This document shows, piece by piece, positions 10,756 through 25,962 of a DNA stretch of 32,000 bases (positions are counted from its first letter, which is position 1; each line of letters starts with the position of its first letter). The translations under genes were made by a program, and so were the position numbers. The DNA is from Candidatus Harpocratesius repetitus. Lineage in GTDB: Archaea > Asgardarchaeota > Lokiarchaeia > Sigyniarchaeales > Promethearchaeaceae. The stretch covers positions 2,490,001 to 2,522,000 of the forward strand of contig JAIZWK010000001.1 in NCBI GenBank assembly GCA_021498095.1. Reading direction: 5' to 3'. Under the pieces are notes generated by a model. That model did not search any database, had not been told where the DNA came from, and saw nothing but the letters and a program-made list of their open reading frames with translations.

Positions 10756-12537
10756 TTGATGAAAGGGATGAAAGGAAGTAAATGGGTCGCTAAATTAGCA
10801 TTTCAGTATCCAATAACCACAATCTATGTAATAATTGTTTCAATTATAGAAGTTTTGTTGTTCATCTTTCCAATATCAATAACTGCGCAGTTGATCGAAG
10901 CATTATTGAATGGAGCAACCATGAAAGATGTTCAATCAGATCTTTTTTTTCTTTTTGGTCTGGCTCTTTTCCAAGCTTTGATTTTCTTTTCTATTTCGTT
11001 TTTAAATGAAGTTATTGCGCATAGGGTTACCACTGATATGACACAAGAGTTATTTGAATCACTTCAATATCGGAGTTTAACTTATCATGATGGTAAAGAT
11101 GTTGGTGAAATTATGGCGCGAGCCACGGGAGACACAAGAACTGTAAATATTGCAATTTCACCTGCAGTACGAATATTCTTAGAAATTTTGACACTTTGGT
11201 CTGTTATTTTCATACTTACTGCTTTGGTTCATTGGGTACTATTACTCTGGGCAATTATTGTGTTTGTTTTATTTACAATTACGACCTTCTTTTATGCAAA
11301 AAAGCTTGTTCCCTATACAGTTAATCTTAGAGAGAAATTTGGTGAATTATCAGAAACAACTAATACATATTTCACAGGTATACGCGAAATTAAATCATTT
11401 GTTTCCCAATCTTGGGCAAAACGAAAATATGGTAAAAAAGTTATGCAATATCGCTCTATTGAATTAGCTTCAGGAAAACGAGGAGCATGGTTTTACCCAA
11501 TGTTGGTAGTTACCTTCTTTTCTGCATCAATTATTGTATTAACTCTCTTTTTTGCTTTTAAGGGGATATTTGGAGTCACATTTAGTGATGTTATCAAATT
11601 ATCAAGCATGATAACCCTTCTTACCGGAATGTCCGAAGAGATGGGATGGTCTACAGAATTCTTGATTCGAGGAAATACATCAGCAAATAGAATTTATAAC
11701 ATTATTCATGAAAATGATCCTGGTTCTTTTTCTGATGGAAAAGAAGAATTTAATTCAAACCAATCTGATATCGAATTCCGCAATGTATCATTCAAATATC
11801 GATCAAATCTTCCTTGGGCTCTAAGAAATGTTTCTTTCAAAGTAAATAAAAATCAGACAATTGCAATAGTGGGTTCACCAGGATCTGGCAAATCAACAAT
11901 TGCTAAATTAATTCAACGCTTATATCTTCCTAATGAGGGAGAAATTCTCTTAGGAGGACGACCAATTCAAGAATATTCAAATAAATCACTTCGAAAAAAC
12001 ATAGCCACAGTTGAACAAGATATTTTTCTTTTCAATACGACAATAAAGGAAAATATTCGGTTCGGAAAGCCATCTGCTACAGACGAAGAAGTAATACAAG
12101 CAGCAAAACTTGCCAAAGCACATAATTTCATTATGGAATTACCACAAAAATATAATAATCTTATCGGAGAAGGGGGTATTAGATTATCGGGGGGACAAGC
12201 TCAACGTTTATCGATAGCAAGAGCATTATTGGTAAACCCTTCGATTCTATTGATGGATGATGGGGCATCAGCTCTTGATGCTCAAACAGAAATTCAAATT
12301 CAAAATGCAATATCTAATATTTTGAAAACGCATACCACAATCATAACCACACATCGACTTTCGATTATAAGTAAGGTTGATTTGGTTATCATATTGGAAA
12401 GAGGAGAAATTGTCGGATTAGGAACACATGAACAATTGATCCGTTCGAATTCTTTCTATAGGCGCCTTTTTGAGCGACACTATGAGCTTCCTCCTATTGA
12501 GGAGGTTTTAATAAATACTGAAGTTGTAGGAGAATAA
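10756..12537 (+). CDS. ABC exporter (TMD-NBD half-transporter), subunit 1 of a heterodimer
   Basis: TM domain then GSPGSGKS, LSGGQ, non-canonical Walker B LLMDD and THR. Confidence 0.95.
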   Translation: MMKGMKGSKWVAKLAFQYPITTIYVIIVSIIEVLLFIFPISITAQLIEALLNGATMKDVQSDLFFLFGLALFQALIFFSISFLNEVIAHRVTTDMTQELFESLQYRSLTYHDGKDVGEIMARATGDTRTVNIAISPAVRIFLEILTLWSVIFILTALVHWVLLLWAIIVFVLFTITTFFYAKKLVPYTVNLREKFGELSETTNTYFTGIREIKSFVSQSWAKRKYGKKVMQYRSIELASGKRGAWFYPMLVVTFFSASIIVLTLFFAFKGIFGVTFSDVIKLSSMITLLTGMSEEMGWSTEFLIRGNTSANRIYNIIHENDPGSFSDGKEEFNSNQSDIEFRNVSFKYRSNLPWALRNVSFKVNKNQTIAIVGSPGSGKSTIAKLIQRLYLPNEGEILLGGRPIQEYSNKSLRKNIATVEQDIFLFNTTIKENIRFGKPSATDEEVIQAAKLAKAHNFIMELPQKYNNLIGEGGIRLSGGQAQRLSIARALLVNPSILLMDDGASALDAQTEIQIQNAISNILKTHTTIITTHRLSIISKVDLVIILERGEIVGLGTHEQLIRSNSFYRRLFERHYELPPIEEVLINTEVVGE

Positions 12538-12540
12538 AAA

Positions 12541-14553
12541 ATGAGTGTAGATCTTGAAGATACAAAAATTCATAAAGTAGATAAAATCAATACATTAAAG
12601 AAAAAACAAGGAGAATTCAGTAAATTATTTGGTATTTTTTTTGATTCTTCTCTTCAATCGCTAGATGAGATGAAAAAAAGAACTCAAAAAACTACAAGCA
12701 AAATTAAATCTCCTAATTTAAAAAGTGAAAACATAAAAAAATCCATTTCTAAACTACAAAAAATACAAAAAAAAAGAAAACACTCAGATAAAGAATTACT
12801 AAACTATTTATGGAGCTATATTGTACCTAATAAGCAGAAATTTTATATTGTAAGTATTTTGATGCTGGTTAATGTTGGATTGGGAATTCTAAGCCCTCTA
12901 TTATATCAAAAAGCATTAGCTTTAATAGAAGAAGCAAGCATTAATCCTAATCTATCTCGAATTTTTCCATTTCTTTTAACTTACTTCATAATCGTCATGG
13001 TATTATGGTTTACAAATGTAATTCAGCGAATTTTCACAATTCAGTTGAATAGCTTTACAACAAATGCAATGCGTACGCAAGTTTTTAATGAAATTTTGCA
13101 AAATTCTGTTTCCTTTTTCGATCATTCAGAAACTGGAGTTTTAACAAGTAATATTACTAATGATATTCAAGAATTATATGAAACTGGAGAGCGGTTTGTT
13201 GTTGTTTTTACGAGTTTGATTAGGCTAATTGTAACCGTTTCAATTCTTTTCAGCTTTTCACCACGAATAACGGCTATTTCAATGGCATTTCTTCCTATTT
13301 TTTTCTTTATTTCAATGGCACTACGAAAATTTCAAAGAAGAGTTGCACGAATTTGGCGGAAAAATTTTGGAAAAGTAAATCAAAGTTTTTCGGAATCAAT
13401 GAGATCTATCAATATTTCAAAAGCATTTGAACGAGAAGAAGAAAATATTAGACGGTTCCATAAATTAAATGAATTAACCTACAAATCATCTGTAAAACGT
13501 GGATTAGGTATTTTTATTATGGGTCCAATCAGCGATTTCCTCCGACATGTACTGCTCATCATTATTTTATGGATTGGAACCTTAGAATATAATAATGCTC
13601 ATATTACGCTTGCTGCATTTTCTTTGTTTATTTTTATGTTTGACTATTATTTCTATCCAATTATAGCTTTAGCACGCCATTATAATCGTTTTCAATCTTT
13701 ATTTGGAATCTTAGAACGATTATTAGAAAGTAGCGAACAATTAGGTTTAAAAGAACCAGCAGATTATGAGATGGAGGCTTTAGATATCCATGGTGAATTA
13801 GAATTAAGACATGTAAATTTTGAATACCAAGAGAATAATCCAATATTAAAAGATATTTCCTTTAAAGCTAAATCTGGCCAAAGAATTGCTTTAGTTGGTC
13901 CAACAGGAGCGGGAAAGACAACAATTGCTTCAATTCTGATGCGTTTCTATAAGATTAAATCAGGAGAAATCCTTATTGACGGTAAAAATATTTTAGATTA
14001 TCCATTAAGTGCTTTAAGAAAATCGATTGGTTTGGTTAGTCAGCGAGTATTATTGATTAAAGGAACAATTCGGGATAACCTTTTATTAGGAAATGAGCAA
14101 GCAACAGATGAAGAAATATGGAATGCCTTAGATATGGTACAAGCGCGAGAATTTATAGAGATGCTTCCTAATGGATTAGACTCTTTTGTTAATGAAAAAG
14201 GGAAAAACCTTTCCGCTGGACAGCGACAAATGCTTTCATTCGCTCGTGTTTTATTAGCTAATCCGAAATTAATTATTCTAGATGAAGCCACTTCAGCAGT
14301 GGATCTTTATACTGAGTCAAAAATACAAGATGCTATTGATATTATGCTTGAAGGTCGTACAAGTTTAGTTATAGCGCATCGATTAACAACGATTTTAAAA
14401 AGTGATCTAATTTTAGTTATTGATCAAGGAAAATTATTACAACAAGGAACTCATGAAGAATTAATGGAACAATCTGGGCCTTATAAAAAGATGTATCAAT
14501 TGTATTTTGAGACGCAATCTGCAAAATATTTGGAAAAAATAAAGAAAAATTAA
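12541..14553 (+). CDS. ABC exporter (TMD-NBD half-transporter), subunit 2 of a heterodimer
   Basis: Starts 3 nt after subunit 1; GPTGAGKT, LSAGQRQ, ILDEATS and AHR; Lys-rich N-terminal extension. Confidence 0.95.
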   Translation: MSVDLEDTKIHKVDKINTLKKKQGEFSKLFGIFFDSSLQSLDEMKKRTQKTTSKIKSPNLKSENIKKSISKLQKIQKKRKHSDKELLNYLWSYIVPNKQKFYIVSILMLVNVGLGILSPLLYQKALALIEEASINPNLSRIFPFLLTYFIIVMVLWFTNVIQRIFTIQLNSFTTNAMRTQVFNEILQNSVSFFDHSETGVLTSNITNDIQELYETGERFVVVFTSLIRLIVTVSILFSFSPRITAISMAFLPIFFFISMALRKFQRRVARIWRKNFGKVNQSFSESMRSINISKAFEREEENIRRFHKLNELTYKSSVKRGLGIFIMGPISDFLRHVLLIIILWIGTLEYNNAHITLAAFSLFIFMFDYYFYPIIALARHYNRFQSLFGILERLLESSEQLGLKEPADYEMEALDIHGELELRHVNFEYQENNPILKDISFKAKSGQRIALVGPTGAGKTTIASILMRFYKIKSGEILIDGKNILDYPLSALRKSIGLVSQRVLLIKGTIRDNLLLGNEQATDEEIWNALDMVQAREFIEMLPNGLDSFVNEKGKNLSAGQRQMLSFARVLLANPKLIILDEATSAVDLYTESKIQDAIDIMLEGRTSLVIAHRLTTILKSDLILVIDQGKLLQQGTHEELMEQSGPYKKMYQLYFETQSAKYLEKIKKN

Positions 14554-15044: not shown

Positions 15045-17048
15045 TTAATGAATTAATCCTAGAAGTTCTTTAATTTCTTGTAAAACAGATGGAAAATCAT
15101 CAAATATATCCCTGATATCATTCTGGAGACAAATATTAAGAATTTCTTCAATTTTATAATCAGAATCTGCAGAAAGACCTAATATAAGAGGGTTTTGAAA
15201 AATAAGATAGATTATCGGAGCAAGATGGAAATAATAATAGTATATTTGATTTGTTTCTTTTGTTTTTTGATATTTTTTCATTTCAATTAAATATTGGGGA
15301 ATTAAATTCATAATATCGATTTTTTCAAAAATTGGAAGAAAGGTTTCTAATGTTTTTTTTATTATAAAAAAATTAGGCATGAATTCGGGACCTTTTTTAA
15401 TTTGAAATATTAATTCAACTAGCTTCGCCCATTGATAATAAATTTCTCGTTTATCCCTGTTATATTGAAGATTTAAGAACTCAGGAAGTCTTTTAGCATC
15501 ATAAAACGCGCGAAAGATATAATACCATGTTTTTTTTTCTGCCACCTGCCGTTCCCTATCAAAAAGTTCAGTTTTTATCAATTGAATAGCTTGATCAAAT
15601 TCTAATTGACGGATTAGAATTGAAATTTCATATTGGAAAGCAATTTCACCAATGCGGGTATATTTTCTGCGGATTTCTTGAATCAAATCCCAACAAGCTT
15701 GATATCGTTTCTGAATGAAATAATAACGCGCGATATAATGAAGAAAATTAATAATTGATGTTTTTCCATTGCCATAACTAACATTGATATTCTCCCATTC
15801 AGCAACAGAATAGTTGGTCAATAAATGTTCGGTGAAAATTTGCACAATTACCGGACTTGGATATTTAATAAAGATTTCATTAAGCTCGTTAAAGGTAAAA
15901 TCTAATTCACTAATTATTTGTACAAGATTTGTCTTTACTCTATTAAGATCTGGTTTTTCTTTAAAATGATTATAAAGACGGTTAAATATTGCCAAATTGA
16001 ATTCACTTTTATATTCTAATTCTTGAAAATACTGTAGAAATAACCCCCATTTGGCGGAATCTTCAAAAATCGATACAATTTCTTCTAAAATTTCTTCTTG
16101 GGTAATTGATTTTAGATGGGTTAAGAATGGTGGTTCTTTTGGAATCTCTGTAACAGGTTCCTTCTTAGGAGATTCCTGCATGACTGAATTTTGCTGCTGA
16201 CTTGAATTTAATTCATTGTTTTTATTTTCATAGATATCCTTATTAGGAATAGATATTGAATTTGAGATTACATTAGAACTAAGATGTGAAACAGATGAAG
16301 ATTTTAAGGTTGTTTCTTGATTATTTCCATTATTATTATATAATATTTTTCCCTGCGGGTTCTCAAGTATACTACTTTCTACTGAATTAGCATTATTATA
16401 TGTTTCATAATCTCTAGAATCTCCAGAATCATCATAGTCTCCATAATCCCCATGTTCATCATTTAAATTTGATTTTGATGATTCATGGGAAATTTGGGAA
16501 GGTATTGTTTGAAAATGATTAATATTTTTTAGTTGTGATTTAAGCGATTTGATTTCCTCGATTAAATAACTTATAATATGATCATTTTGACTATTTGAAG
16601 TATTTCCGATATTATTTTGGGCTTTATCTAAACGAATTTGGTTAATTTGCAAAATTGAATTCAAATTCTTACTATTTTTTAGCTTGTGGATATTTAATGA
16701 ATTCTGATAATCTTGATAACTAATCATTTTTTGATTTTTGGGTAGTTTAAAAAGAAAATCTAAGTATTCTCGACCTTGCTGTGTTATTGTATAAGCATAA
16801 TATTGTCTATTGGAAACTATATCCTTAACCTTTTGAATTAAGCCAAACGAGATTAGACGTTGATAAATTTTATAGTAAGTGCGACTACTTTTACGATTTA
16901 CTCCTGGATATTTCTCATTAAAATGTTGGATTTCAGAATGTCGAATTTTGTCGTGATGATAAAGAATGAAGAGAATTTTTAGTTCTTGTGTGGCTTTTTG
17001 AAGGAAATTATTCATGTTGGAATTAAGTTTGACCATCTGACTTGACAT
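15045..17048 (-). CDS. Winged-helix (PadR/MarR-like) N-terminal domain + N/S/Q-rich linker + C-terminal helical-repeat (TPR-like) region
   Basis: ELKILFILY...YYKIYQRLISFGLIQK...YAYTITQQGREYL fits a wHTH; the middle is low complexity; the C-terminus has amphipathic helix pairs (e.g. YQACWDLIQEI, FDQAIQLIK). Confidence 0.72.
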   Translation of the reverse strand: MSSQMVKLNSNMNNFLQKATQELKILFILYHHDKIRHSEIQHFNEKYPGVNRKSSRTYYKIYQRLISFGLIQKVKDIVSNRQYYAYTITQQGREYLDFLFKLPKNQKMISYQDYQNSLNIHKLKNSKNLNSILQINQIRLDKAQNNIGNTSNSQNDHIISYLIEEIKSLKSQLKNINHFQTIPSQISHESSKSNLNDEHGDYGDYDDSGDSRDYETYNNANSVESSILENPQGKILYNNNGNNQETTLKSSSVSHLSSNVISNSISIPNKDIYENKNNELNSSQQQNSVMQESPKKEPVTEIPKEPPFLTHLKSITQEEILEEIVSIFEDSAKWGLFLQYFQELEYKSEFNLAIFNRLYNHFKEKPDLNRVKTNLVQIISELDFTFNELNEIFIKYPSPVIVQIFTEHLLTNYSVAEWENINVSYGNGKTSIINFLHYIARYYFIQKRYQACWDLIQEIRRKYTRIGEIAFQYEISILIRQLEFDQAIQLIKTELFDRERQVAEKKTWYYIFRAFYDAKRLPEFLNLQYNRDKREIYYQWAKLVELIFQIKKGPEFMPNFFIIKKTLETFLPIFEKIDIMNLIPQYLIEMKKYQKTKETNQIYYYYFHLAPIIYLIFQNPLILGLSADSDYKIEEILNICLQNDIRDIFDDFPSVLQEIKELLGLIH

Positions 17049-17255: not shown

Positions 17256-18404
17256 ATGTCAGATAAACAATCCACTTTATCAGGAATCATAAAAGAAAAA
17301 CAATCAGATGAATCCCCCAAAAACCAATCTTTTAACGAAAACGAATCATCGACTATTAAAGAAAAAAGGCAACTACCACAAAATCCTGTAGAAATTCTAA
17401 AATTAACCAAAAGTGGGGGGATTACATTACCAAAATTAATTCGATCACAATTAGAAGAAAAGCAATTGTTTGCCTTTTGGAAAGAAGATGATCGCTATAT
17501 ATTAATGCCAGTAAAGGAATATGAAATTCCTGATTTAAATTTACTAGAAACTAAGAAAAAATCAAATAAGGTAGAGGATTCTGATACTAAAGCAAAAAAA
17601 ACACGTAAAAAAAGAACAGCAAAACAAAAACCATCTACAGGACCGCAACCGGAGTTAACAAAATATTTCCCATTTCCTTTAGAAAATCAAGAAAAAATTC
17701 AAAATGCGGTTGAAGCAAGCTTTTATAAACTTATTGAAATACCCCCTAAAATTGACGAAGTCATAGAACGGATCAAATACATCATAATTAATTATGGAAT
17801 TGGAAAAACCACAAATGATTCGCGCCTAAAACATACAATAGTTTTGTTTATTGATGATATTATCTCAAAAGTCCCTGAACAAGATTTTACACCAATTCTT
17901 GAATATCTATCATCAAAAATTGTTCCAAATATTGATAGCACCTTCTTGCGAGAGCAAAGTTTAATTACATTATGTGGTACAACTTTGAAAGCTCAACTTC
18001 CTGAACTTGCATTAAGCTTGCTTAGACAAGTATTTGCTGGAATTGATTCATACGATCAAGAATTTGCAATAATGCAAGGTATTAAATCAATAATGAAGAA
18101 ACTTCAATCGATTGATGTTCCTCTTTCAGAGGACTTTCAGTTAACTGTTCAGAAAAATTTAAGCAAGTTTATTATAGGAAAAAGCAAAGAAAGGTTCATT
18201 GAAGTGTCAGAATCTTCAAACAATGAACAAATTATATTATCTACTGATAATTGCTTGGAAATAATTGAATTAATGCAGAATTTTCAAATGATAGATGCAG
18301 CAATGGAAGCAGCACAAAAGCTTTTAGAACGTATTCCACCAGAAGATATTCATATCGAAGATGTGAGGGCGAAAGTGAATTCATTAAGGAAGCATTCTCG
18401 ATAG
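17256..18404 (+). CDS. AbrB/MazE/SpoVT-like DNA-binding domain + basic patch + alpha-helical repeat C-terminus
   Basis: ILKLTKSGGITLPKLIRSQLEEKQLFAFWKEDDRYILMP matches the swapped-hairpin consensus; then KAKKTRKKRTAKQK; remainder helical. Confidence 0.72.
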   Translation: MSDKQSTLSGIIKEKQSDESPKNQSFNENESSTIKEKRQLPQNPVEILKLTKSGGITLPKLIRSQLEEKQLFAFWKEDDRYILMPVKEYEIPDLNLLETKKKSNKVEDSDTKAKKTRKKRTAKQKPSTGPQPELTKYFPFPLENQEKIQNAVEASFYKLIEIPPKIDEVIERIKYIIINYGIGKTTNDSRLKHTIVLFIDDIISKVPEQDFTPILEYLSSKIVPNIDSTFLREQSLITLCGTTLKAQLPELALSLLRQVFAGIDSYDQEFAIMQGIKSIMKKLQSIDVPLSEDFQLTVQKNLSKFIIGKSKERFIEVSESSNNEQIILSTDNCLEIIELMQNFQMIDAAMEAAQKLLERIPPEDIHIEDVRAKVNSLRKHSR

Positions 18405-18473: not shown

Positions 18474-20738
18474 ATGCTCAGGCAAGTAATTTTATATTTT
18501 CAAAATGAAATAATATTTACTCATATTTTTGCACAAGCTTATTCAAAAGAAACGCTTGAATTAGTTTTAACTAAAAAATTAATTGGATATATTGAAAAAC
18601 CATCGAGAGGTCAGACCTTTAATAAACCTCTTTTCGATTTTCAAGCGCATTTTGGAATGTTTGGTAATGTATTTTTTCTATATATTACAGATATGAGTGA
18701 TCGTCCAAAAGTTATTGCTAAAGAAATACAACGTGCTGCGCGCATGTTTCAAAAATATTTTCCAGATCCATTAGAAATTAAAAATCCATCGGTGCAAAAA
18801 GAAGAATTTATTAAGTTTATCAACGAAACTCATTACTTTCTGCATCCTAAAATTTGTTTAATGGGTCCAAATTATACAGATCGACAACAGATAGTAGATT
18901 ATTTAAAATTAAGCCCAGAACCTGATAAAAGAATAATGAATTTTGCAGTATATCATCAAATTCAAATTGGAACACTCTTTTTGGATTTATGGAACTTTAT
19001 TGAAAAGGATACTCTTTCACCATTATGGAATAATTACGTTCGCGGTTCTGATATGATTTTATTCATTCTAGATGGAACTAGTCAAGAATTAAATGAACAT
19101 TCTCTGAAATTTTTTCACTCACTACGCTTAAGAGAGGGAAAATACAGTAAATCGGCTATATTCCTAACACATGCACATCAACCTTCTTTCATTGGTAAAG
19201 AAAATCTAATTTCAAAGTTTCCTTTTTTAGAAAAATATCCTATTTTTGAAATTGATTTGGATGATGGAGATGGAAAAGATCAATTAATAAATGCTATGAG
19301 TGTTGCTATCGGTTTAAAGCAACCATTACCTCCAGAGTTTAAAATAAAACTTAAGAAAGCAAATGATTTCGTGGGTCAACAAAAATATCAAGATGCTTTG
19401 AATTTATTAAAAGATTTAATTCAAATATGCGAAAAATATCAAGAATTTAATTATATTGACGTTTTTCAAAATAAAATAAAAGAGTTGCAAGAAAAGCAGA
19501 AAGAAAAACAACTTCAAGAAGAAATTGAAAGAAAAAAAATAAAAGCTCCAAAGAAAATATCTTTTGGAAAATTTAAAGGTGCAAAAACACTCCCAACAGA
19601 TTTAAAAGGTAAAATTCTTCCTGATCTCAGCAAATTAAAGAAAGTCAGCACAAAATCCAAAGATAAACAATCGAGTTCAGAACCATTATCGCATATTTCT
19701 TCTTCATATTCATCCACTGATAAGAATGTAAGTGAATCTTTACCGAAATCGTCTGGAAATGAAGGTATATTACAAGATATTGATTCAGCAAATCCATTTT
19801 TTAGTGGATTAAGTTCATCAAAATCTATAAAAACTTCTCAAGAAAAAAAAGATGAAAAATCAAATCAAACATCAAATCATGCATCAAATCAAGCATCAAA
19901 TCCATTCTTTACTGGAATCCCAAATGTTGATCCTGGTAAAATGTTATCAAAGAAATCCATAGACGACAAATCTTCCCATGAATCTAAAAAAGATTCAACA
20001 GATCATTCTGATGAAAATCCTGATTTATTATTTGAAAATGAAATTGAGAAATTATTGAAAGAGCACGATAAGATTAAAGACATAAGCAACGATTTGGATT
20101 TTTTTGAAGAATTACAGGCAGATCATGATAAAGAAAAACAAAATTGGCAGAATAAACCCGAAGGAGTTAAATATCAATCAAATGGCACTAAATCTTCTAT
20201 TCAGGAAGAGAAAAGGGAAGCAATTCCAAATATCGAATCAGGTGCATCTATCGATACTTTTAAAATACGTAATTATTCTGTTAATCCAATCGATCTTTCT
20301 GGCGCGCCATTACCAGAAAATCATGAAAAAGCTGAAGAAAGACCTAATCCATTCTTATCAAATCTTTCAAAACAAAAAAAGGGGTATACAAGACGTAAAA
20401 CACTTACCTTCGAAGCATCGCCATTAGTTTCTTCAGAACAAAAGAAACCAAAAGTAAATATTCAAAAAACAAGAACAACCACTCCATTTATAGAGCGAAA
20501 TCCACTTCAGCAATTTACCCTTGAAAAATCACCACTGACACCAAAAAAAATTCTTACCCCCGCTGAAAAATTAGAACAGACTATTTTGATAAAAGGTGAG
20601 ACTTTAGCATTGGATTTATGTGAGAAATTCATTTCACAACTCCGTATTAAACTAAAGCGTACAATTACTGATGCTGATATTGAAAAGGTAGCAGATCTTT
20701 ATGTAAAGCAAAAACGACAAAAAGCCAATCAAAAATAG
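18474..20738 (+). CDS. Longin-like domain + degenerate Arf/Rab-like small GTPase domain + helical/coiled region + long disordered NPF-containing tail + small C-terminal helical domain
   Basis: MLRQVILYFQNEIIFTHIF...FFLYITD...IAKEIQRAARMF is longin-like. PKICLMG...LDLW...LWNNYVRGSDMILFILDG is a small-GTPase scaffold with substituted G1/G3/G4. Confidence 0.78.
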   Translation: MLRQVILYFQNEIIFTHIFAQAYSKETLELVLTKKLIGYIEKPSRGQTFNKPLFDFQAHFGMFGNVFFLYITDMSDRPKVIAKEIQRAARMFQKYFPDPLEIKNPSVQKEEFIKFINETHYFLHPKICLMGPNYTDRQQIVDYLKLSPEPDKRIMNFAVYHQIQIGTLFLDLWNFIEKDTLSPLWNNYVRGSDMILFILDGTSQELNEHSLKFFHSLRLREGKYSKSAIFLTHAHQPSFIGKENLISKFPFLEKYPIFEIDLDDGDGKDQLINAMSVAIGLKQPLPPEFKIKLKKANDFVGQQKYQDALNLLKDLIQICEKYQEFNYIDVFQNKIKELQEKQKEKQLQEEIERKKIKAPKKISFGKFKGAKTLPTDLKGKILPDLSKLKKVSTKSKDKQSSSEPLSHISSSYSSTDKNVSESLPKSSGNEGILQDIDSANPFFSGLSSSKSIKTSQEKKDEKSNQTSNHASNQASNPFFTGIPNVDPGKMLSKKSIDDKSSHESKKDSTDHSDENPDLLFENEIEKLLKEHDKIKDISNDLDFFEELQADHDKEKQNWQNKPEGVKYQSNGTKSSIQEEKREAIPNIESGASIDTFKIRNYSVNPIDLSGAPLPENHEKAEERPNPFLSNLSKQKKGYTRRKTLTFEASPLVSSEQKKPKVNIQKTRTTTPFIERNPLQQFTLEKSPLTPKKILTPAEKLEQTILIKGETLALDLCEKFISQLRIKLKRTITDADIEKVADLYVKQKRQKANQK
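19859..19902 (+). repeat. 12-bp in-frame imperfect tandem repeat (SNQT-SNHA-SNQA-SNP)
   Basis: ATCAAATC core at 19859, 19871, 19883 and 19895. Confidence 0.8.
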
Positions 20739-23979: not shown

Positions 23980-25962
23980 TTGATGAGAATGCAAATTCAA
24001 CGAGTAAAAATTCAAAATTATAGAACGATGAAGAAATGCACGTGCTTTTTATTTCCATATATGGTATTCGTAGGGAAAAATAATGCAGGTAAATCTAATC
24101 TTATGAAAGCATTGAACGTTTTTTTTCATAACAATGCTACTCTTGAAGACTTTCGTATAGAAAAAGGGAAAAGAGTAAGGGCTTTTTCTATAATTCTAAC
24201 ATTTAAAAATTTAAACCAAGAAGAAAAAGAATTGTTTAAAGATTTTATCTATAATCCTGGATCTACTTCTGAAAAAGTCGTGATTCGATTTAATGCAAAA
24301 AGAAATGGCGAAGTTATTCACTCTGAATATACATTTGCTTTTAAAACATTAGATCCTTCAACTGAAGATGAAAAAAAGAAGTATCTTTTTTTAGATGATG
24401 AAGGTTTAAATACTAAATCTAAACTTCTGAAAGCTTCAAATGTTCCTGATGATTTTAAAGAAAAAATTGAAAAAATCTCTGAACAACTCTCTTCAGGAGA
24501 AAGATTTTCAAAAAAGCATATTATTCGCGCAAAAAGAGAATATATTGATGAGATAATCAAGAAGGAAAAAATTCATTCTAAAATAATATGGGAACCATTA
24601 GCAATAAAGAAGACAGATTTTGAACGCTATTTTGGGCATTATTTTTTCATTCCGGCGGTGCAGGATATTACACAAGAAACAACATTTTCTGCAAAAGGAA
24701 ATACAAATATTTCCAAATTAATGCGTTATATCTTTGCTCAAATGCAGAATCAAGATCGACAGCAGCAATATGAAGCAGAGATTCGAAGAATTATTCAAGA
24801 AATTTACAGAATTAATAAAGAAGATTCTGAAATAAACAAATTGCGCGAGGGATTAAATTCATATTTAAGTGATTTTGATGGTTCTCAAGTAAGATTCGAT
24901 ACGGAATTACCTTCAATAAATAAAGTCGTCCGTGATTCATTGAAGATCTTCATCAATGATGGTGTTGAAACTGAAGTGGAACATAAAGGACATGGTCTAC
25001 AGCGCTACTTTATGGTAATTTTGTTTAAAGCTTGGGCTAATAAACTCGTTCAAAAGAATAATTCTAATCCAACACAGACTTTAAAAGATGATAAATCAAA
25101 GATACTCGCTTCTTCTTCTTTGTTTTTCGCAATTGAGGAACCAGAATTATTCCTTCATCCTCAATATCAACGGTTGATGAAATATTACTTAAAAAATATC
25201 GCAGAAGCGCCAGATAATCAAGTAATATTAAATACTCATTCTCCAAATTTTATCGATTTTAAAGAATATAAGAAAGTAGCAAGAGTTGTTAAACCTATTC
25301 GAGATGGGGTACCATGCACAGAAATTATTCAACCTATTGAATATCGTAATGGAAAATTGGAATTTAAAGATTTAACACATGCACATGGTTCAGTTCCCGA
25401 AAAAAAAGAAAAATTTCATAAAATTAATGCGTTAAATCTCGATTATTTTATGGATCCACACAGAAACGAGTTATTTTTTGCTGATCGAGTTGTATTGGTG
25501 GAAGGTGAAACAGAAAAACTTATGTTTCAACAATGGGCTGAATATTTTCTCCCAAATGAAGCAGATCTTCTTGCTACCACCACATATATTGATATGGGGG
25601 GTAAATTTAATGCACAACTTTATGAAACGCTACTAAACGGTTTTGAAATTCCTTATGTAATAATTATTGATAATGATAAAGGATCTGAAGATCAAACTAT
25701 GAACTCTACGAATTATCATATTAAAAAAACTGCTGAAAAAGGTACAGGCACATACATTGAATTGGAAGGTGATTTTGAAGCCGAATTTGGAATTACAGGA
25801 CATGAATTAGATAGACATGGGCAAAAAAAGCATAAACCTTATGTTGCTTTTAAGACCTTTTTTGACGATAAAGGAAAACCAAAAAAAGAAGCTTTAGAAC
25901 GAATCCGAAAACATCCCAAGTGGAAAACGATTGTAAAAGCAATATATAATAAAGAAATCTAA
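23980..25962 (+). CDS. OLD-family ATP-dependent nuclease (ABC-type ATPase + TOPRIM); likely start ATG 23989
   Basis: MQIQRVKIQNYR, GKNNAGKS (Walker A), GHGLQRY, IEEPELFLHP (Walker B), NTHSP, TOPRIM LVEGETE and IDNDK. Confidence 0.92.
   Translation: MMRMQIQRVKIQNYRTMKKCTCFLFPYMVFVGKNNAGKSNLMKALNVFFHNNATLEDFRIEKGKRVRAFSIILTFKNLNQEEKELFKDFIYNPGSTSEKVVIRFNAKRNGEVIHSEYTFAFKTLDPSTEDEKKKYLFLDDEGLNTKSKLLKASNVPDDFKEKIEKISEQLSSGERFSKKHIIRAKREYIDEIIKKEKIHSKIIWEPLAIKKTDFERYFGHYFFIPAVQDITQETTFSAKGNTNISKLMRYIFAQMQNQDRQQQYEAEIRRIIQEIYRINKEDSEINKLREGLNSYLSDFDGSQVRFDTELPSINKVVRDSLKIFINDGVETEVEHKGHGLQRYFMVILFKAWANKLVQKNNSNPTQTLKDDKSKILASSSLFFAIEEPELFLHPQYQRLMKYYLKNIAEAPDNQVILNTHSPNFIDFKEYKKVARVVKPIRDGVPCTEIIQPIEYRNGKLEFKDLTHAHGSVPEKKEKFHKINALNLDYFMDPHRNELFFADRVVLVEGETEKLMFQQWAEYFLPNEADLLATTTYIDMGGKFNAQLYETLLNGFEIPYVIIIDNDKGSEDQTMNSTNYHIKKTAEKGTGTYIELEGDFEAEFGITGHELDRHGQKKHKPYVAFKTFFDDKGKPKKEALERIRKHPKWKTIVKAIYNKEI

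Follow-up and report, generated by a model that had tools for sequence, protein, structure and literature searches.

An invariant Asn-Pro-Phe motif in the disordered linker of a Lokiarchaeial longin-GTPase as a candidate protein-docking site

Background

In eukaryotes, short Asn-Pro-Phe (NPF) peptides are read by the EH domains of Eps15, intersectin and EHD1-4, and their carriers include epsin, Numb, Rab11-FIP2 and rabenosyn-5. What role could three such motifs have in the disordered tail of an archaeal protein? The protein, P0001, is encoded in a 32,000-nucleotide stretch of Candidatus Harpocratesius repetitus (assembly GCA_021498095.1, contig JAIZWK010000001.1, positions 2,490,001 to 2,522,000), hereafter the window. 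The genome consists of a single 4.36-Mb contig with 31% G+C that encodes roughly 3,200 proteins, and the names given to homologues point to the Lokiarchaeia (Promethearchaeota). Position numbers without a prefix refer to the window, and coordinates prefixed G000:C1 to this genome. A preliminary description of the window, drawn from its letters alone, likened the three motifs to EH-domain ligands and offered a convergent membrane-binding motif as an alternative.

The answer reached here centres on the first motif, NPF-1. On balance, we lean towards a protein-docking short linear motif that is under selection and belongs to a clade-specific set of NPF motifs. The features on which the argument turns are as follows.

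18474-20738, + strand: P0001, an open reading frame (ORF) of 754 residues with a longin-like domain, a degenerate Arf/Rab-like GTPase, a helical stalk, a disordered linker of about 330 residues and a C-terminal three-helix domain
19767-19811, + strand: NPF-1, the universally conserved copy, as the extended motif ILQDIDSANPFFSGL (residues 432-446), with its NPF core at 19791-19799
19855-19902, + strand: 12-bp tandem repeat of four copies running into NPF-2 (Tandem Repeats Finder score 68)
19899-19919, + strand: NPF-2, NPFFTGI (residues 476-482), a lineage-specific second copy by alignment
20346-20366, + strand: NPF-3, NPFLSNL (residues 625-631), common only to P0001 and P0002 by alignment

NPF motifs in P0001

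The stretch containing the motifs falls wholly inside P0001. Translation of 18474-20735 places them at residue 440 (nucleotide 19791, SANPFFSGL), residue 476 (19899, SNPFFTGI) and residue 625 (20346, PNPFLSNL), and these positions match the preliminary description exactly. Its remark that the second motif ends a 12-bp SNxx micro-repeat is also borne out. The repeat is real, with four copies (SNQT SNHA SNQA SNPF) and 88% matches, and its last unit provides the S-N of NPF-2.

The number of motifs exceeds what composition would supply, a comparison that had been proposed as a check. For the whole of P0001, 0.13 NPF are expected and three are observed, so chance frequency is not matched; at least three arise in 0.03% of 50,000 whole-protein shuffles (P about 3e-4). 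For the tail alone the expectation is 0.06 and the shuffle P is about 2e-5 (roughly 0.002%). Eleven other tripeptides occur three or more times in P0001, all of them built from the abundant residues K, S, E, I, L and Q. Of all tripeptides with at least three occurrences, only NPF is made of rare residues.

Conservation of the motifs

Every one of the 23 full orthologues taken from the protein database has at least one NPF in its tail, as do three more recovered by genome searches. The Asn, Pro and Phe of NPF-1 are identical in 27 of 27 distinct orthologues, and they form the core of a consensus of about 15 residues, [IVA][LFV]x[DK][IL][DK]xx-NPF-[F23/M3/I1]-[SGT]-[GDN]-[LMI] (27 sequences). 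The roughly 200 residues around it are otherwise unalignable. Between residues 389 and 583, NPF-1 is the sole island with any column reaching a conservation of at least 0.6, and mean column conservation is 0.33 in the linker versus 0.66 in the folded head. The codons of NPF-1 differ synonymously between loci (AAT/AAC, CCA/CCT/CCC, TTT/TTC), and the constraint therefore acts on the protein. The preliminary description had asked whether NPF outlasts the rest of the tail among orthologues or is lost while the protein is kept. For NPF-1 the outcome is decisively the former.

The other two copies have a different history. At the position of NPF-2, P0003 has NPFFSNI and P0002 has KPFFTGI, and the motif is absent from most orthologues; P0004 carries a second NPF that arose by an independent exact duplication. 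At the position of NPF-3, P0003 has NPL, and the motif overlies an older conserved island with the consensus ExxLxxSLS, seen as FLxSSLS in several orthologues. Judged from these alignments, NPF-2 and NPF-3 are young, lineage-specific additions. All three copies noted earlier are thus present, but only NPF-1 is conserved, and the triple set is a feature of the genus and not of the family. Local duplication of NPF has been repeated, in P0001, P0003, P0004 and P0021, a pattern that would fit selection for valency.

Three further islands were recognized downstream in the linker by alignment, the first two with the help of column conservation.

20259-20291, + strand: conserved island FKIRNYSVNPI (residues 596-606)
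20388-20426, + strand: conserved island TRRKTLTFEASPL (residues 639-651), also found in the NPF-less genus g2
20499-20516, + strand: second Asn-Pro motif, NPLQQF (residues 676-681), consensus NPLxxF[T/I]

The first island shows little or no variation at F596, I598, P605 and I606, and its Asn is variable. Within the NPF clade, 20 of 27 members have the last motif, NPLxxF[T/I], and none of six sampled outside the clade has it. Among the related Asn-Pro motifs listed in the preliminary description, RNPLQ therefore holds up as part of this consensus. ENPDL is not conserved, and only the Pro-Ile of VNPID is invariant.

Distribution and origin

Members of the longin-GTPase family occur in 72 of 75 other sampled genomes, which belong to two families of one order; with P0001 as the query, none was found in the rest of the phylum. 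Relatives in f2, in g2 and g73 of f1, and in f31 (families are written f and genera g) have the same head and C-terminal domain, joined by shorter tails from which NPF is absent. In a maximum-likelihood tree of the folded head only, rooted with a paralogue, the 32 NPF-bearing rows all fall into a single clade with support of 95/91, although the internal branches of the tree are long. This tree implies one gain of NPF and no loss among the 32 rows. As far as the sampled sequences reach, NPF does not extend beyond one subclade within a Lokiarchaeial family, and its likeness to the eukaryotic system is therefore most likely convergent.

Architecture of P0001

The domain layout of P0001 was taken from an AlphaFold2 (AF2) model built on 24 orthologues and scored by the predicted local distance difference test (pLDDT).

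18474-18839, + strand: longin-like N-terminal domain, residues 1-122 (AF2 secondary structure, pLDDT 81-92)
18849-19313, + strand: small-GTPase fold with degenerate nucleotide motifs, residues 126-280 (Foldseek, a sub-cut-off Pfam Arf match, alignment)
19587-20549, + strand: disordered linker, residues 372-692, with one lineage-specific helical hairpin at residues 517-559 (AF2 pLDDT, column conservation)
20559-20732, + strand: C-terminal three-helix domain, residues 696-753, kept order-wide including NPF-less relatives (pLDDT 74-87, alignments)

The model is confident over residues 1-355, the helical hairpin and the three-helix domain. Scores below 50 cover residues 372-515, 562-675 and 682-692; within 387-515, residues 436-444 are the only part not flagged in this way, the motif itself having a pLDDT of about 50. 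NPF-1 thus sits in the disordered linker. The predicted topology of residues 1-122 is beta-beta-alpha-beta-beta-beta-alpha-alpha, as in a longin domain, and Foldseek and an atlas look-up gave no longin-domain match for this region. Residues 126-280 have Arl1, Arf1, Arf6 and Rab chains as their top Foldseek matches (E 2e-7; template-modelling score by target 0.6-0.75), and the Pfam Arf profile scores 19.5 bits, which is under its cut-off.

The nucleotide-binding motifs of P0001 are eroded. GPNYTDRQQ stands where GxxxxGK[ST] is expected at G1, DLWNF where DxxGQ is expected at G3, and THAH where NKxD is expected at G4. The G3 form DLW[DN]F is found in all orthologues. The P-loop Gly-Lys-Ser/Thr is gone only in P0001-P0006, which have GP[NHSF]xx[DS]RQ in its place, and the remaining orthologues, among them P0007 of the cultured Lokiarchaeum ossiferum, have GxGK[ST]. 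This distribution points to a recent change in the P0001 group, by which an atypical GTPase became a pseudo-GTPase.

The same genome encodes a paralogous longin-GTPase at G000:C1:2149203-2151206 (L002:1501-3504) in which GVGKTT, WDFAGQ and NKQD are intact. In its tail, a coiled coil comes after 13 near-identical PPPAPKTSVT repeats.

NPF motifs in other proteins of the clade

Across the whole proteome, represented by a crude ORF set, NPF shows no general excess (174 observed, 154 expected). Its low-hydrophobicity segments contain 14 NPF versus 2.5 expected, and five permutations gave 0-3 each. Apart from the extracellular copies described below, these NPF fall in a few cytosolic proteins with tails, and three such proteins encoded elsewhere in the genome bear on the argument.

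G000:C1:812021-813838 (L058:917-2731): Rab-like GTPase with a zinc-ribbon tail, an intact G domain, five NPF and seven other xPF
G000:C1:811105-811905 (L058:1-798): beta-sandwich/zinc-ribbon neighbour upstream of the Rab-like gene, in which a disordered tail links a beta-rich N-terminal domain to the terminal zinc ribbon
G000:C1:3290679-3291890 (L059): 403-residue zinc-ribbon protein with a helical N-terminus and a disordered middle

The Rab-like GTPase has a disordered tail of about 400 residues that ends in a zinc ribbon. Orthologues from metagenomic sequences with a tail identity of only 33% still have four to seven NPF. Orthologues of the NPF clade range from one to seven, where about 0.1-0.2 are expected per tail. 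Counts for individual tails are 5, 4 and 6 in g1, 5 and 2 in g3, 1, 2 and 1 in g4, and 1 in g72. The complete tails of g2 have 0 and 0, and 13 complete tails from families f2 and f32 contain no NPF in 4,796 residues.

The beta-sandwich neighbour keeps one NPF in g1, g3 and g4, as PYNPFSP in three g4 genomes and PYNPFSA in g3. An atlas look-up of this protein returned no named cluster at 0.9 or above, and CBM-like rows at 0.82-0.87 serve as leads only. In the 403-residue protein NPFF is kept within g1, and DPFGP is present in six of eight complete orthologues, including that of g2. The genera with NPF in the longin-GTPase are those with NPF in two unlinked, unrelated proteins. An NPF reader that appeared, or shifted its specificity, at the base of the clade would be expected to leave such a sharing of genera by unlinked proteins.

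A docking model and the search for a reader

How might NPF-1 act as a docking motif? The disordered linker of about 330 residues joins the folded longin and Arf-like head to the C-terminal helical domain. The Asn-Pro-Phe, probably as a turn, and the hydrophobic residues at positions -8, -7, -4, +3 and +6 would enter a pocket of a folded partner, and this docking would tether the GTPase head to the partner protein. NPF-2, NPF-3 and NPLxxF could add valency, and with it avidity, in this genus. We infer both that NPF-1 binds a protein and that one trans-acting NPF reader, which may have arisen or been re-tuned at the base of the clade, is shared. A wider proposal is that this Lokiarchaeial family has evolved its own NPF network, in which the longin-GTPase, the Rab-like GTPase and a zinc-ribbon partner would be joined by a reader fold new to NPF. 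We advance it tentatively, as plausible but somewhat short of probable.

Several observations weigh against the docking interpretation, and the first group concerns the reader. Profile searches identified none. A six-frame search of this genome, from which a very divergent domain could escape, gave no match to EH (PF12763) at E of 1 or below. The EH profile stays below its cut-off in 14 of 14 genomes of the family, where the best match (20.8 bits) lies in a frame with a stop codon. In this genome the best E of EF-hand_7 is 0.2, SHD1 and PID/PTB profiles find nothing significant and MSP (PF00635) has no match at E of 1 or below, so that no FFAT/VAP receptor is indicated. The search for EH- or EF-hand-like domains that the preliminary description envisaged has therefore turned up neither an EH domain in the 14 genomes nor an EF-hand pair in this one. 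What survives of its EH-ligand interpretation is that a short linear motif in a disordered tail is conserved and not random; the EH domain itself was not found. By comparison with the eukaryotic ligands, the term 'EH-domain ligand' is an analogy and not a statement of membership.

The second group of unfavourable observations concerns the motifs. The consensus of NPF-1, at about 15 residues, is longer than a classical EH ligand, and the NPFs of the Rab-like tails do not share it. The two sets, in the longin-GTPase and in the Rab-like GTPase, might thus use different readers. The co-distribution across genera rests on one clade and amounts to one event per protein family, and the Rab-like tails of g71 and g73 are truncated sequences. 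Finally, four of the 14 NPF in low-hydrophobicity segments are extracellular, which makes the enrichment smaller than it first appears. Three of these lie in NPFENIPGY-transmembrane sorting signals and one precedes the C-terminal transmembrane segment of a fourth protein.

The three secreted proteins with such signals are encoded at G000:C1:3426662-3428590, 3432528-3434519 and 229343-232672, and two of them are SBP_bac_5 solute-binding proteins. At their C-termini, TTDD repeats and then NPF(E/A)NI(x0-4)IPGY precede a transmembrane helix, and the tip is basic. From their sequences, these termini look like a PGF-CTERM-type archaeosortase signal with Tyr replacing Phe.

Three candidates for a partner or appendage were considered and rejected. 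The first is a Sec23/24-like protein.

G000:C1:3244683-3246401 (L088:826-2544): P0034, Sec23/24-like, with collinear weak Pfam matches to the zinc finger, the trunk (2e-5) and the beta-sandwich (5e-4)

P0034 continues after its Sec23/24-like part into a helical tail and has no gelsolin domain. Its distribution over the order is patchy: 17 of 101 genomes have it. As an obligatory reader it fails, being missing from G089 and G094 (both of this genus), from g4 and from g72, all of which keep NPF. A second, appendage-like candidate with a PCI-winged-helix-turn-helix, beta-rich and zinc-ribbon layout (G000:C1:1310468-1311733) recurs across the order, in 35 of 46 genomes, and is not clade-specific. 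The third, a 756-residue protein (L138:514-2781, within G000:C1:350400-353800), was set aside as an appendage when its matches proved to be PCI, UFL1 and DDRGK.

Alternative explanations

The alternative that survives best, although we regard it as unlikely, is a private intramolecular latch. NPF-1 would bind its own longin/GTPase head, or the solenoid of the protein encoded just upstream, and so regulate or assemble the longin-GTPase module.

17256-18404, + strand: P0026, 382 residues, encoded by the upstream same-strand gene; AbrB-like beta domain, basic disordered linker and alpha-solenoid

In all nine NPF-clade loci for which the upstream flank was read, the gene immediately upstream, on the same strand, is a P0026 gene of 41-64% identity, and P0026 is a conserved operon partner in this clade. 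Its basic linker is KAKKTRKKRTAKQK, and it has an invariant GPQPEL..YFPF segment. The C-terminal half of P0026 is a confident alpha-solenoid of 11 helices (model pLDDT >90). Its fold matches are generic TPR/HEAT/ARM matches only, and weak (E 3e-3 and above), but they include peptide-bound structures (KLC-TPR, LGN and importin-alpha). Longin domains commonly bind regulatory segments, and the extended consensus of NPF-1 is specific to the longin-GTPase family, as a latch would have it.

However, both P0026 and the head are found order-wide, including in NPF-less clades, and neither is specific to the motif; P0026 is present in 90 of 101 searched genomes of the order, this one included. The full-length AF2 model leaves the motif, at a pLDDT of only about 50, outside the confidently folded parts. 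A latch also leaves the parallel gain of NPF in the Rab-like GTPase and its neighbour unexplained. Complex prediction with P0026 residues 128-382, P0001 residues 1-356 and the tail at 425-485 gave an ipSAE of 0.00 in both runs, which were made without controls, and weighs neither way. The recurrence of NPF in other tails of the clade makes a latch less likely than a shared reader acting in trans.

True EH-type recognition, by a highly divergent EF-hand or EH-like domain that escapes Pfam profiles, is improbable. It would account for an NPF followed by a hydrophobic residue, placed in disordered tails in several copies per protein and on proteins associated with small GTPases. Eukaryotic NPF-bearing Rab effectors bind EHD proteins by the same logic, and the enrichment of NPF over permutations in disorder-like segments points in this direction as well. 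What tells against it is that EH falls below cut-off in every genome of the family searched and EF-hand_7 gives no more than its marginal match here. With NPF limited to a subclade of one family, convergence is the simpler account.

There is also only a slight probability that the motif inserts into membranes, with its Phe-Phe/Leu cluster dipping into the bilayer and anchoring the GTPase without lipid modification. The hydrophobic residues at -8, -7, -4, +2, +3 and +6 would suit such a role, as would the multiple copies in the tails of two GTPases. Archaeal small GTPases are not known to carry prenyl or myristoyl anchors. But membrane insertion does not need the invariant Asn and Pro, and the flanks of the motif are mostly acidic or neutral (DIDS, LDEK) and not basic. 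Moreover, what comes after NPF in the Rab-like GTPase is often K, S, Q or N rather than a hydrophobic patch. The convergent membrane-binding motif suggested in the preliminary description is for these reasons a poor fit.

The last alternative, that NPF has no function and reflects chance, composition or a by-product of the 12-bp repeat, draws on the abutment of NPF-2 and that repeat, the restriction of NPF-3 to one relative and the lack of a proteome-wide excess, but it is contradicted for NPF-1 by its presence in 27 of 27 orthologues within a poorly conserved linker, its synonymous codon changes and a shuffle P of at most 3e-4, and it is very improbable overall while being possible for NPF-3.

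Gene neighbourhood

The P0026 gene initially seemed to co-occur with NPF as a neighbour of the longin-GTPase gene. This was an artefact of short flanks: the gene is found order-wide and in f2 lies about 2.2 kb off. The f2 neighbourhood comprises four genes, with HEAT/coiled-coil and Cys-rich genes between the AbrB and longin-GTPase genes. In this genome the HEAT/coiled-coil and Cys-rich pair lies about 88 kb away at G000:C1:2419008-2421166 (L066, L067), and the neighbourhood is split into two pairs.

15045-17048, - strand: 667-residue protein in which an N/S/Q-rich linker joins a weak PadR-like winged helix to a helical C-terminal half

A three-gene module that would include this winged helix-turn-helix gene was rejected, as no homologue lies beside the orthologous loci and the arrangement holds in this genome only. 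Among the sequencing runs listed for the locus of P0001, none is of RNA and one is of DNA, which may be the source sample. The window also encodes an OLD-family nuclease with AAA_15 and TOPRIM domains (23980-25962) and an ABC exporter gene pair with ABC_membrane and ABC_tran domains (10756-14553).

Comparison with known systems

Several traits are shared with the eukaryotic EH/NPF system. The NPF core resides in disordered regions and is often followed by a hydrophobic residue, some carriers have several copies, carriers belong to small-GTPase pathways, and more than one carrier protein is present per proteome. In contrast to that system, no EH domain is detectable in this genome or family and no EF-hand pair in the genome, and the P0001 motif, a putative ligand, is confined to a subclade and most likely convergent. 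Comparison of the two therefore gives a resemblance in logic, and NPF-1 is not a demonstrated member of the EH/NPF system.

A reader of NPF need not be an EH domain. The A-site of yeast COPII Sec24 reportedly recognizes the YNNSNPF motif of Sed5, a finding attributed to Mossessova and colleagues in 2003. This genome also encodes a Sec23/24-like protein; unlike in the Sec24/Sed5 system, its gene is missing from several genomes that keep NPF.

Within the clade, the Rab-like zinc-ribbon GTPases provide the closest parallel. Like P0001 they have a disordered tail with conserved NPF, occur in the same genera and lack a lipid-anchor signal. Unlike P0001 they have a canonical, unrelated head with intact motifs, and their tails carry one to seven simple NPF without the extended consensus and finish in a zinc ribbon instead of a helical domain.

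Tran et al. (2024, Commun Biol 7:273, PMC10933270) used structure predictions to describe longin-GTPase fusions of Lokiarchaeia (MK-D1). P0001 resembles these in its N-terminal longin-like and Arf-like GTPase folds, and orthologues occur across the same order. The longin and fusion passages of that paper that were searched describe folded domains and contain no passage on tails. Unlike the Asgard longin-GTPase fusions, P0001 and its genus are without the P-loop Gly-Lys-Ser/Thr. Lokiactin co-immunoprecipitation in L. ossiferum is reported to have recovered 'an ARF-GTPase'. The literature searched contained no paper on Asgard archaea and the NPF motif or on NPF/EH in archaea, and none that deals with short linear motifs of trafficking-like proteins or GTPase tails in Asgard archaea.

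Implications

Asgard archaea have many small GTPases without lipid anchors, and an invariant, shared peptide provides a practical handle on the partners of their tails. If NPF-1 is indeed a docking motif of a clade-specific set, then motif-based, multivalent interaction wiring, usually thought typical of eukaryotic trafficking, would exist in archaea as well. This archaeal clade would have independently evolved a counterpart to the endocytic EH/NPF network of eukaryotes. Being restricted to a subclade, the motif would speak to the convergent evolvability of such a network and not to direct ancestry of the eukaryotic EH/NPF system.

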